Assembly (NCBI RefSeq): GCF_003790525.1
Contig: NZ_CP033635.1
DNA: 64,000 bases
Source: Escherichia coli
Lineage (GTDB): Bacteria > Pseudomonadota > Gammaproteobacteria > Enterobacterales > Enterobacteriaceae
Reading direction: 5' to 3' (one strand)
Part shown: positions 57,001 to 63,000 of the stretch, one piece after another
Numbering within the stretch: position 1 is the stretch's first letter
How the letters are laid out: every line of letters begins with the position of its first letter
Position numbers: made by a program

Positions 57001-60000
57001 AAGCTGGTCATAGTGGTTAACTGCACTATAACCAGCAATTTTAACCAAATGCTTGTAATGCTTAGCCATTATCTTCTGAATTATCGGTTAAGAGTTCAAT
57101 ATATGCCTGCGCTTTGCTCTTAACACTTTCATCCTCACAATTGTTAATAATATGATAGAAACATTGCATTGCGTTATCGATATTTTTAGCCCCAATTTGA
57201 CATTGACCCATACGATAAATAACTGAATAGTCATCATACGGGGAGTAATTGTAACTTAGTTTGTAAAGGTCATATGCTTGTTGATATTTCTTTTTTGACT
57301 GGCATACTGATGCAAAACCTTTTAGATATTCATGATTTTCGAACGCATAAATGCACAGAAATTTATAATAAATTTCTGCGTCCGTTATATTACCTTTTTC
57401 ATGGTAGTCGAATGCACATGCATATATTCTATCAAGGATATCAGGAGTCAATCCATGTAGTAATGCCAGATTTTCTCCTTGCGATAATGCGTGTTTTAGT
57501 TGACTTGCCCATTCATCACTGTTATTGAATATTTCAAGTGTATCTGTGCTCATAATATTCCTCTGTGATGTGTTTCGTGATGCTAAATTATTATTGATTG
57601 ACTCATTAATTTTTTGCATTTATCTTTTTTGAATTATGAGTTTTAAGCTTGCATTGCTTATGGGTATATAGGTTCATTATTAGTGAAAATACTGACCACT
57701 ATAAACCAATAATGTCATTAGTTGTTTTGCTAATATTCACCTTATTAGTTATCTTAATTACGACATTTCATAAATGCCTTAATGTGCATGGCCTGGATTC
57801 ATATTATCAATTTCCATTTTTTCGATGAAAATTAAAAAAGGGATTTTTGCGAAGGGTAGTAAGTCGTCTGGTTTTTTTTCTTTATTATGTCTGGTGACGA
57901 GGGGGGATAGAACGTCGGTGCATATAGTCGAGAATTTATTCAGGTCTAAATTATTCTCTATTTTGGCCAGTTTTATGAGTTCATTTGTAGCCATACTCAT
58001 TAAATCATCTGTTATCGGAAATTTATATATGCTCATAGCCGATAATATTGCTTGCTGAATTATTTCTTCAGAAATATCCGTTATCTTTATTGACAAATCA
58101 TGTGTTAGATATTTTCCTCCAAGAGATTCTTGTTCAATATAATTTAAACCAGACCTCATCGTAATTTTAACTGGATTCACGTATTTCTCTTCATTTTTCT
58201 TATTTTTGTTCTCCTGATCAGGAACTAATGGTTGCAGTGGTAGGCTATTATTAATATTTCGTGGCTTCATTTTACATTTCTCTCATTTGATTAGAGCAAA
58301 ATCCGAATTCGCAGCTTCTGATAATGTCAAATATCACCTTTTCTCATGCTTTATTCTATCAAAAATCGCTCATTTTTACTTTTTTTACCATAATGTTACT
58401 TAGTAGCATCGGCAATTTACATAACTTACATGTTGTTTTTTATATCCTGAAAAAACAGATAGATAGTGTGCACACTCGAAATGATATTGGTAACATAAAT
58501 AGCTTTATTCGTGACAAACATCTCAAAAGATTTCCTTTATTATTTTCGAAATTCATTTGATCAAGGTTATCACCTTATGGAGACGTTACGTAGAATGACT
58601 ATATTTGTTATCGGCACATTAGGGGTATTAAATTTAGTATTGATGGAAGGTGATTATTGAACAGTAACATCGAGTCACGGTAAAAATGTGAGGTATATAA
58701 TGGACATTGAGTTTTCGCAGATTCATGAAATGGTCTATATGCATGATATTGTAAATTCGGACTCGAAAAAGAAACCAAGGATTCCGTTAAAAAAATTCCT
58801 TAATGCTGAGAAGGTTCTCACGCAAACTGGATTTGCCCCTATATTTCCAGACACCTGTTATCACTTAACCCATTACTGGCTTGCTGCCGTAGATATTCCC
58901 GTGGCGAGCGATAACCCAGTGCACTATGCGGATGCCATTCGTTATAATGCTCGAATGCCTCTGCAAGGTTCTTTGCTGCCGTTAACCCGTCTGGTTTGGG
59001 CATGACACTGATGTAGTCACGCTTTATCGTTTTCACGAAGCTCTCTGCTATGCCGTTACTCTCCGGACTCCGCACCGCCATGTTCTTCGGTTCAAGCCCC
59101 AACATCCGGGCAAACTGCCGTGTTTCATTAGCCCGGTAGCATGAACCATTATCCGTCAGCCACTCTACTGGAGACGCCGGAAGCTCGTTGCCGAAACGGC
59201 GTTCCACCGCTCCCAGCATGACGTCCTGTACTGTTTCACTGTTGAAGCCGCCCGTAGTGACCGCCCAGTGCAGTGCCTCACGGTCACAGCAGTCCAGCGC
59301 GAACGTGACTCGCAGTTTTTCTCCGTTATCACAGCGGAACTCGAACCCGTCAGAGCACCATCGCTGATTACTTTCTTTCACAGCCACTCTGCCGGTATGT
59401 GCCCGTTTCGATGGCGGTACAGCGGGTTTTCGCTCAAGCAACAGCGCATTCTGGCGCATGATCCGGTAAATACGTTTGGCATTGATCGCAGGCATACCAT
59501 CAAGTTCGGCCTGTCTGCGAAGCAGCGCCCATACCCGACGATAACCATATGTGGGCAGCTCTCCGATAACATGGTGTATACGGAGAAGCACATCCGTATC
59601 ATCTGAGTGACGGCTGCGGCGACCATCTTTCCAGTCATCGGTTCGTCTGAGAATGACGTGCAACTGCGCACGCGACACCCGGAGACAACGGCTGACTAAG
59701 CTTACTCCCCATCCCCGGGCAATAAGGGCGCGTGCGCTATCCACTTTTTTGCACGCCCGTATTCAACGGCTTCTTTAAGGAGTTCATTTTCCATCGTTTT
59801 TTTGCCGAGCAGGCGCTGGAGTTCTTTAATCTGCTTCATGGCGGCAGCAAGTTCAGAGGCAGGAACGACCTGTTCTCCTGCGGCCACAGCAGTAAGACTT
59901 CCCTCCTGGTATTGCTTGCGCCAGAGAAATAACTGGCTGGCTGCCACACCGTGTTGCCGGGCAACAAGGGAGACTGTCATTCCCGGTTCAAAACTCTGCT

Positions 60001-63000
60001 GAACAATAGCGATCTTTTCCTGTGTAGTACGCCGTCTGCGTTTCTCCGGTCCTAAGACATCAATCATCTGCTCTCCAATGACTAGTCTAAAAACTAGTAT
60101 TAAGACTATCACTTAAATAAGTGATATTGGTTGTCTGGAGATTCAGGGGGCCAGTCTACAAACAACATCATGGGTACTAAATTCAAGATATGTGAATGTT
60201 AATTCTGTCAGTAAAGTCAACGTAAAGAGTAAAGTTAAAAACAGTTATATCTCACGATCTGTCAATGATGAGTTTAGTTTAACAGATGATGAAATCAATT
60301 CTCTTAAAGAAACGTTAGTCCTTTCCTCTATTGATTCACTAAGTAAACTGGTTCTTAATAATCCTCTTTCTGTATTGTTTACATCGACTGTACGAAGGAA
60401 TAATAATAGAGCTAAGATGAATGTTGAGTTCGACTCATGGGTTTGCACCAGATGTTGTTGATACATGATATTTTACATTGCAAGGTGATATCTAAAATGA
60501 AAGATGTTGATCAAAACTTTGATGCTTTATACTGGCATATACTACAAGCATATTTAATTTTATTGTTTTATGATTAACGAGGTTCCATCTTTTTGTTATC
60601 TATTTAAGTTTACCTTGCACAATGCATTATTGCTCTGTTACCAATGCTCAAAATAAAAGCATGCTTACCTTGCTTTAGTATATTATAGCTTACACTTTTT
60701 TCTGGAAAGACATAAAAATCAGGAATAAGTTCTGCAAGTCTATCATCATCGACTTGATCCATGATCTCAAATTTATTAACTTTCTTTGATGTTAAATGGG
60801 CTGTGTCATAGTTTTCAATCCATGTGTATTCAATATTTCGCCGTATTGATTTACTTTCTCTGTTACCTTGTTGCCAGGTTCCGCTCAACGCAACAGTTCC
60901 TGTTTTATTTTTTTTGTTATACATAAAGTCGATGGTAAGATTTGCTCGCCCCTTGTCATTAAAAATTACCCAATTTGCAGTGCATGTTTCATTATATATC
61001 ATTTTTTCTGCAGTATAAGAGTAAACAATGAAGAGAATAAACCCACTGATAAAAACTAAAATAAATAATAAGTTTTTTTTATAATCAATCACGATTAACC
61101 TCACGGTAAGACAGGGTTAAACAGCCTGCCACTTCATGTTGGTTATAGTTTTTATTGCATGCCATAACAATCATCTCTGGTGAGGATTTTGCAAGAGGGA
61201 AGTATAACCACGGATATTTTTTACAGTTAATCCCCGAATCCAGTATCCGTGTCTTATATTTATCGAACTCTTTCAACCCATCAATTGTATCTTCTGTCAC
61301 ATTAAAATGGCAGCCATTAATTTCCGCAACAGTCTTGTAATCCTTGAAGAATGGTTTCGGTTGATTATTATTCCATAGCCAATGTGCAGAATATACGCCT
61401 ATAGCAAATATGCTCAACATAATTAGATAACTTTTTATATGTTTGAGGATTTTGTTATTGAAATTGTTTGCGCTACCAATGCTCTCTTTGTACCCCGCAT
61501 TACCTTTTACGGCAGGTGGGGCATTGTGTGTATGTGCGTCTGTTGAAGAGTTTATTGCATGATTTTGTATGTTAATGTCATTATGAATCTTGAATCCTCT
61601 TCTCGGCACGGTTGCAATAAGCGAGTGGGTGGTATCACCAACAGCGCGAAATCCGCGTCTGATAATGGATATGTTCTGATATAACGTGTTAGTTGGCACA
61701 CGCATACCTTCTTCTTCCCAGACTCTGGTGAAAAAATCTTGTTGTGCAACCACATCAGGAAAAGCTTCAAGTAGAAGTGATAAACAACGACTGGCTGGCG
61801 TTGTCAGAACGACGTTAAGATCGGCGTTATGTACCGATATTAATTTTCGGTGCTCAGGCCAGAACTCGATATTATCGTTAATAATCCAGTACATACGTCA
61901 ATAGACACTAAATCAATCGAAATGGAAATCACATAGTTTGCTAAGTATATTGGTATTTACGGCATAAATATATATTAATTTTATATTTATCATAATGATT
62001 GAAATGAGGCTTTAATGTCGCAACGTAAAACTTTACGCAAATTAACATGATTAACATTTATGCCACTATTGTTTGTAAATTCATATTTCGTAATGCTTCT
62101 GAATTTTTCGTGTGATGGTTTTAAATACCATGTTGTTTACTCTTGGGGTTACTGCTTATTTGTAAAATACGGGCATTTCAATAGATGCCCGTATAAGCAG
62201 AGTATGATTCTGGCAGATTGTTGAGTATCAATGTTGGACCGAATGTGAACGAATAAATAATTCGTTTATTTTACCACCCATTCTCTTTTCGATTCGTTGC
62301 TTGTACGCGTAGATGCTACGGATATCCATATCCAGAACTTCAGCAATCTGATATGGATTATAACCAGAAACCATATACCCCATTATGGTGAATTCCATCT
62401 GAGTTAATGTGTTACCTCTGGTAAATGATAAATAACGACCAATAAATAGTTGTCTGATCTTTTCATTGGCAACATCAAGACCATCATCATTATATATGAC
62501 AGCAGATATTGCAGAGTTGTGTTTTCGCCAGTAGTTAGCTAACGATTGCATATTGCGGTCGCTGATTAAAACAATCCCCATGTCAGTACTTGCAAGATAG
62601 TCAATCCAGTCTTTTTCAAGGAATAGACGTAAAAAACTTACTGAAAAATCGACAAAAATATATCCGCTTAATCTCGCATTGTGGTTTTTTGTTAAGATAC
62701 CTTCCACCACACCACGATTAAAATATGAACTTTCTTCGGGCCACATACAAAAACACGAGTTTGCGCAATACTGCAAACGCGGTGACTCTTCTGGCATTAT
62801 TTGGCAATGCATTGAGCAACTATTGCATGTAAGACTTTTATAACGACTACAAAGCCCCATGTTAAGAACCTCCCTATCCGTATATAATTGCATAATTTCA
62901 TTGGTTATTGATGATGTCAATACACCATGATTTTGTAATTTTGCTGGGAAAAATTGCGATTAATCTGTATTTGCTATAATTCTGATTAAGACATTTTAAA

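Follow-up and report, generated by a model that had tools for sequence, protein, structure and literature searches.

In the window, a 64,000-nucleotide stretch of Escherichia coli DNA, an IS2-type element of 1331 bp lies at positions 58828-60158 within yqeK and encodes its transposase on the minus strand. No other IS2 copy occurs in the 64 kb. The disrupted gene is located between ygeF and yqeL/yqeJ, with neighbours as in K-12, and is usually counted within ETT2 (PMC3977695); the insertion site therefore lies inside this island, at its yqe end. The features of the locus are listed in Table 1, and the limits of 58823-60163 previously given for the element together with its CAAAC pair are exact. 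On the plus strand the element begins with TGGATTTGCCCC... and ends with ...GGGGGCCAGTCTA; read on the minus strand, the IS2 IRL is TAGACTGGCCCCC... and the IRR is ...GGGGCAAATCCA. The two ends align to each other with one gap. Relative to K-12 IS2, IRL is unchanged over its first 41 bases, and a single base differs within the last 49 bp at the IRR end. The inverted repeats described for IS2 measure 41 and 42 bp, and its A6G window, minicircle and Pjunc promoter have likewise been described (PMC3299598).

Table 1. Features of the interrupted yqeK locus, in window coordinates.
Feature	Position	Strand	Basis or remark
yqeK 5' fragment, codons 1-42 and the first two bases of codon 43	58700-58827	+	RefSeq GN03139: 'protein YqeK, incomplete, missing C-terminus'
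Left target-site duplication copy, CAAAC	58823-58827		Direct sequence reading
IRR, donor end	58828-58868	-	Faces 5' part of yqeK, then ygeF and ygeG; 41-bp length per PMC3299598
orfB (insD), 301 codons, catalytic integrase-core (rve) part of transposase	58839-59744	-	Pfam rve, rve_3, HTH_21
orfA (insC), 121 codons, HTH DNA-binding protein repressing the element's own promoter	59702-60067	-	Pfam HTH_Tnp_1
Slippery site A AAA AAG (A6G), predicted programmed -1 frameshift	59744-59750	-	orfA (frame 0) and orfB (frame -1) overlap there
IRL, containing weak promoter PIRL	60117-60158	-	42-bp length and PIRL per PMC3299598
Right target-site duplication copy, CAAAC	60159-60163		Direct sequence reading
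yqeK 3' fragment, remainder of codon 43 to stop	60164-60461	+	RefSeq GN03139: 'missing N-terminus'
yqeL-like ORF, 26 codons	60497-60577	+	Translation; downstream of yqeK, K-12 yqeL at equivalent place

No internal stops were identified in orfA or orfB. OrfA is 100% identical in amino-acid sequence to K-12 InsC despite 19 synonymous base changes, while OrfB differs from K-12 InsD at 11 residues (96.35% identity), none of which falls within the WCSDG, LTDNG and NGIAES motifs. A -1 frameshift at the slippery site would fuse OrfA to OrfB in a predicted transposase of 409 amino acids, and a programmed frameshift is annotated by PGAP in the counterpart of strain GN03139. Profile searches against NCBIfam returned 'IS2 transposase TnpB' (NF006918; 703 bits against a cut-off of 597), 'IS2 repressor TnpA' (NF006928; 239 against 229) and the IS3-family model NF033516 (280 against 160). 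Thus the ends, the reading frames and the NCBIfam and Pfam profiles all bear out the first-pass annotation of a full-length IS2 in which insC and insD are intact and neither inverted repeat is missing. As both ends, the two ORFs and the slippery site are intact, the element looks still able to move.

The closest point of reference is IS2H of K-12 (NC_000913.3, 2996361-2997691; IS3 family), which is also 1331 bp long, aligns to the window element without gaps and shares its gene layout, its A6G frameshift site and an identical OrfA protein, as well as the 5-bp target duplication made on IS2 insertion. The two differ by 60 base substitutions, corresponding to 95.49% DNA identity. ISfinder sets isoform thresholds of approximately 95% or more for DNA and 98% or more for protein, and identity at the isoform level is borderline, with DNA at 95.49%, OrfA at 100% and OrfB at 96.35%. 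Judged by its sequence, the element is a variant of IS2 in the IS3 family, which PGAP labels only as 'IS3 family transposase'. The genomic settings are also different: IS2H sits between ygeO and ygeP, approximately 6 kb from the yqeK site, next to an ETT2 deletion and with no target duplication at its ends; yqeK of K-12 is intact. The earlier distinction between the present site and a K-12 copy inside ETT2 is thus correct as to position, although the present site is itself within the island.

The insertion splits yqeK at codon 43. The 5' frame continues into the element and reaches a stop at 59005, generating a chimeric ORF of 101 amino acids from the ATG, while the 3' fragment is severed from its start codon and promoter. 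Joining the two fragments, with the element and one CAAAC removed, restores an uninterrupted yqeK of 426 bp and 141 codons, as had been proposed; its DNA is the same, base for base, as the yqeK annotated as intact in strain TUM1586, and its 141-residue product is 96.5% identical to K-12 YqeK (b2849). With the gene broken into 128 bases on the 5' side and a 3' part that lacks a promoter, inactivation would be expected, and the yqeL-like ORF would also be cut off if it is co-transcribed with yqeK. Such inactivation may nevertheless be without phenotype, since yqeK has no known function and no NCBIfam family was matched by YqeK, nor by the YgeF-like protein or YqeJ. One paper names 'YqeK/EtrB' as a regulator (PMC9014576); this reading was set aside as a probable mix-up of names, given that the table of an ETT2 review lists yqeK (ECs3706) without function and assigns the regulator to ygeK (ECs3712, ssrB-like) (PMC3977695).

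Among 5,426 complete E. coli genomes the site is occupied in seven (GN03139, GN03551, EC332, CM2, CUVET17-1418, CUVET19-1396 and CUVET19-1993), which were isolated in several countries from dogs, chickens and humans. The allele has the same site, orientation and CAAAC in all seven, which are collinear with the window and 99.9-100% identical over 3336 bp. No perfect match to the 3336-bp window query was found in the collection, with bit scores just under the estimated perfect value. In relation to GN03139, the window differs by one base within the element, at 59080, which changes Thr to Met in OrfB and is missing from both GN03139 and K-12 IS2, and by a few bases elsewhere. A further 25 records with at least 80% coverage had been suspected of carrying the same insertion; the four that were inspected have IS2 at other positions and were rejected as cases of it.

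The reconstructed junction is matched at 100% over 1000 bp in TUM1586 and e1-39, both of which present a contiguous empty site with a single CAAAC. The window flanks are 100% identical to those of TUM1586 right up to the junction, and the left and right alignments have exactly the 5 bp of CAAAC in common. By chance, two fixed positions would share a pentamer with a probability of 1/1024; the single CAAAC of the empty-site genomes is more decisive and identifies the pentamer as a true target duplication, as first annotated, excluding a coincidental native repeat. Misassembly around insertion sequence copies is a classic problem, and the structure could in principle be an assembly artefact, or CAAAC could be native with the element brought in by recombination and not by transposition. 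The same junctions, however, recur in seven independent complete assemblies, and an empty site with one CAAAC between flanks identical to those of the window speaks against a recombinational origin; the probability of either explanation is negligible and both were rejected.

A 24.6-kb ETT2 flank reaches approximately 100% identity only in the seven occupied genomes and the two with an empty site; the best match after these is at 99.5%. More distant relatives, with identities of 99.3-99.7%, all display the empty site, which is thus the ancestral state. Precise excision that restores both target and ORF is rare in IS3-family elements. Occupation of the site in the ancestor of the nine-genome clade, followed by precise excision in the two empty genomes, would agree with seven of nine genomes with identical ETT2 being occupied, but it would require that rare event to leave exactly one CAAAC and an intact ORF, and it is at odds with the uniformly empty relatives; this scenario is very improbable. 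Two of the occupied strains, GN03139 and GN03551, belong to ST354 (PMC13322237). Together with the near-identical flank of the seven occupied and two empty genomes, this indicates a young insertion that probably descended within a clone and is not private to the source strain. The transposition had been called recent, which is to be taken in a relative sense: the insertion is common to seven complete genomes of a narrow clade.

These observations make it highly probable that yqeK was hit at codon 43 by transposition of an IS2-type element in an ancestor of a narrow clade that includes ST354 strains. By analogy with the copy-out/paste-in pathway published for IS2, one end of the donor element would have attacked the other, passing through a figure-of-eight to a minicircle (PMC3299598). 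The abutted ends of the minicircle would then have attacked the target with a 5-bp stagger, repair of which would duplicate the target, here CAAAC, and the insertion would subsequently have been inherited by descent within the clade, or may have passed between strains through recombination of the whole segment.

Read-through from the element into its neighbours had also been suggested, and the direction fits: ygeF and ygeG are encoded on the minus strand, as is the transposase, and both lie downstream of IRR, ygeF at 557 bp beyond it. No sigma-70-like hybrid promoter was identified across either junction between element and flank, the best candidates matching 6/12 positions at IRR and 8/12 at IRL. 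A general promoter scan gave nine sites where 7.4 were expected, none of them at the element ends, and no terminator-like sites. Outward transcription thus finds no support in the sequence. An effect on the host could take several forms, with read-through from IRR or disruption of an AT-rich silenced region altering ygeF, ygeG or ygeH, or with selection for loss of yqeK itself. Abutted IS2 ends do form the promoter Pjunc, but the element's own PIRL is a weak promoter that OrfA represses (PMC3299598). Persistence of the insertion in dog, chicken and human isolates from several countries might suggest a benefit, although clonal persistence is what is expected of a neutral hitch-hiker, and IS1 or IS2 insertions in yqeK, ygeF and yqeI of other strains fit dispensable genes. 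A regulatory or adaptive effect is therefore considered unlikely. A reading in which the allele, instead of being simply a neutral clonal tag of an ST354-related sublineage, both changes expression of ygeF, ygeG and ygeH and aids the clone outside the gut seems highly unlikely.

The event is ordinary and of an already known kind, and is already annotated in RefSeq, where yqeK of GN03139 is a pseudogene split by an IS3-family transposase. It has little importance past bookkeeping, and no phenotype can be predicted for loss of a gene without known function; the yqeK::IS2 allele is nevertheless usable as a PCR marker of one ST354-related sublineage. It is also a further example of how insertion sequences erode the ETT2 island by mutation. 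Elements of IS2 type, each flanked by a 5-bp duplication of its own, interrupt yqeI in CFSAN064036 (ATCCC) and C 236-04A (GCCTA) and ygeF in 23AR0922 (ATTAA), and strain E17 carries IS1 in yqeK. These insertions differ from the present one in occupying other positions in other lineages, partly with K-12-type IS2 sequence. The intact element could give rise to more insertions, or to deletions such as those at the borders of ETT2 in K-12 and strain 2013C-3492; IS2-linked deletion at ETT2, which had been envisaged for the island edge, is seen in other strains but not in the window.

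The element that interrupts yqeK, with coordinates extracted from a reading of window positions 58500-60600, measures exactly 1331 bp between two copies of CAAAC. On the minus strand it begins with TAGACTGGCCCCCTGAATCTCC and ends with GGGGCAAATCCA, the two ends forming imperfect inverted repeats with one gap in their mutual alignment, and these IS2 termini occur only once within the 64-kb window. Its G+C content is 52.7%, against 32% in the flanks. The frames orfA and orfB overlap at an AAAAAAG site, where a -1 shift is predicted from the sequence to yield a 409-aa OrfA-OrfB fusion protein. 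This protein exceeds the NCBIfam cut-offs for 'IS2 transposase TnpB' (703 bits; cut-off 597), 'IS2 repressor TnpA' (239 bits; cut-off 229) and 'IS3 family transposase' (280 bits; cut-off 160), and the transposase displays the Pfam domains HTH_Tnp_1, HTH_21, rve and rve_3. The full-length IS2 with both inverted repeats and intact insC/insD reported by the first-pass annotation is borne out.

Features at the insertion site and IS2-type copies in other strains (window positions, or positions within the locus records of K-12, L003, of 2013C-3492, L004, and of further strains, L005-L007)
Feature	Record	Coordinates	Strand	Remark
CAAAC copies	window	58823-58827; 60159-60163		5-bp duplication
IS2 element	window	58828-60158		transposase on minus strand
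orfA	window	60067-59702	minus	121 codons
orfB	window	59744-58839	minus	301 codons
AAAAAAG site	window	59744-59750	minus	orfA/orfB overlap
ygeF	window	58270-57779	minus	
IS2H	L003	11362-12692		between ygeO and ygeP
IS2 copy	L004	3003-4333		no flanking duplication
IS2-type insertion	L005	4834-6164		independent
IS2-type insertion	L006	5002-6332		independent
IS2-type insertion	L007	3001-4331		independent

PGAP labels the element only as 'IS3 family transposase'. Compared with K-12 IS2H it is equal in length, with no gaps and 60 substitutions (95.49% identity). The first 41 bases of the left inverted repeat (IRL) are those of IS2H, while one base differs in the last 49 bp at the right end (IRR). 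The OrfA proteins are identical despite 19 synonymous changes in the DNA, and OrfB shows 11 differences over its 301 residues, with the WCSDG, LTDNG and NGIAES motifs unchanged. By this comparison the element is an intact IS2 variant. Position 59080 is A in the window and G in the otherwise identical copy of GN03139; OrfB accordingly reads KNMAV in place of KNTAV, a Thr-to-Met change a few residues ahead of NGIAES. K-12 IS2 OrfB has Thr at the matching residue, as does GN03139.

Joining 58700-58827 to 60164-60461, with one CAAAC kept, gives a 426-bp ORF of 141 codons, as the first-pass annotation had stated, which is base-for-base the annotated intact yqeK of TUM1586 and encodes a protein 96.5% identical to K-12 YqeK. 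A search with the reconstructed 1000-bp junction found the empty site in TUM1586 and e1-39, each matching at 100% in a single piece, and many further genomes match at 99.4-99.7%; the annotation beneath these matches is yqeK and yqeJ. Flanks that are not contiguous when the IS is absent are therefore ruled out, IS-free genomes matching the junction in one piece. Alignment of TUM1586 to the window yields one block up to 58827 and another from 60159, and the two overlap in TUM1586 by exactly five bases, a single CAAAC. This rules out a coincidental native repeat and establishes CAAAC as a target duplication, the signature of IS2 insertion. Published work describes a two-step IS2 pathway, through a figure-of-eight and then a minicircle, with a weak IRL promoter repressed by OrfA, a strong junction promoter present only in the minicircle, and an A6G frameshift that limits the amount of transposase (PMC3299598); the yqeK copy would have arrived by this route.

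The occupied site, queried as 3336 bp across both junctions against 5,426 complete genomes, was recovered as one collinear piece at 99.9-100% in seven (GN03139, GN03551, EC332, CM2, CUVET17-1418, CUVET19-1396 and CUVET19-1993); the search joins same-strand pieces only, so that the survey covers insertions in this orientation. GN03139 and GN03551 are an initial/relapse pair of ST354 O153 bloodstream isolates (PMC13322237), and EC332 came from Vietnamese chicken meat (PMC12160484). The RefSeq annotation of GN03139 shows yqeK as a pseudogene in two partial pieces, one on each side of an 'IS3 family transposase, programmed frameshift'. As an event the insertion is ordinary, and public genomes already contain it in annotated form. 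Over the 24.6-kb ETT2 flank (34200-58827), identity reaches about 100% in these seven and the two empty-site genomes alone; the next best match is at 99.5%, followed by genomes at 99.2-99.4% that include CE10 and strain ST648. Because this identity is so confined, the insertion appears to have a single origin within a narrow clade; it is young, its flanks being identical to the empty alleles. The 'recent transposition' proposed by the first-pass annotation holds as to age, but the source strain probably inherited the insertion rather than acquiring it; observation and interpretation alike were correct. The window is identical to none of the seven genomes, having one extra substitution inside the IS, at 59080, and a few elsewhere. 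The chromosomes of the three CUVET dog isolates contain no IS2-like sequence besides the yqeK copy, and in other members of the clade the 3336-bp query matches at 6 to 13 places, a hint that the yqeK copy could be an early one that multiplied later in some members. TUM1586 carries about 775 bp, and CM2 about 1.33 kb annotated as an IS3-family transposase, of additional DNA within an otherwise identical ETT2, so that members of this clade have received other IS insertions in the island as well.

MG1655 yqeK (b2849) is intact, and its IS2H lies about 6 kb away between the ygeO and ygeP pseudogenes. The different K-12 position given by the first-pass annotation is correct, but yqeK too is listed among ETT2 genes (PMC3977695). 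No 5-bp duplication was found at the ends of IS2H, as expected of a copy bordering a deletion. The 2013C-3492 copy likewise has no duplication and borders an ETT2 deletion; it connects sequence a short way upstream of yqeK (window 58401) with the glyU/yecR-like side. The location of both copies at deletion boundaries fits IS2-associated island deletion in those strains. The AT-rich yqeI-ygeF stretch has been hit repeatedly by IS2-type elements in other lineages, each with its own 5-bp duplication, at two sites in yqeI (ATCCC and GCCTA) and one in ygeF (ATTAA), and strain E17 has an IS1 inside yqeK.

The insertion falls after the second base of yqeK codon 43, and the 5' reading frame continues inside the element until a stop at 59005. 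yqeK is thereby split and its 3' part cut off from the promoter, as possibly is yqeL. YqeK has no NCBIfam match. It has been named 'YqeK/EtrB', an ETT2 regulator (PMC9014576), but a review table lists yqeK (ECs3706) without function and gives the regulator role to ygeK (ECs3712, ssrB-like) (PMC3977695), so that the name is probably a mix-up, which could mislead annotation. The outward transcription into ygeF and ygeG suggested by the first-pass annotation is speculative but has the right geometry, both genes lying downstream of IRR on the transposase strand; no hybrid promoter was found across either IS/flank junction, and a scan gave no excess of promoter-like sites.

The ygeF-yqeK intergenic segment 58332-58567 (236 bp) is missing from K-12 and CFSAN064036. 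The 9-bp direct repeat TATCACCTT at its edges (58332-58340 and 58568-58576) suggests that those lineages lost the segment by deletion between the short repeats, which probably explains why at least 80% of the empty-site query was covered in only 1087 of 3614 matching genomes. Elsewhere in the window, the gene adjacent to tRNA-Gly for a glycoside hydrolase of family 15 (34334-35987) is split into overlapping ORFs (34334-35008 and 34923-35987) and has two 1-bp indels (34492, 34959) relative to GN03139, whose gene RefSeq labels frameshifted. Positions 43954-45803 contain two unbroken ORFs, of 300 and 315 codons, whereas the RefSeq annotation of GN03139 has at this place a SpaN/EivJ fragment called partial and a YscQ/HrcQ gene called frameshifted; the DNA being identical, these pseudogene calls may reflect annotation models rather than real breaks.
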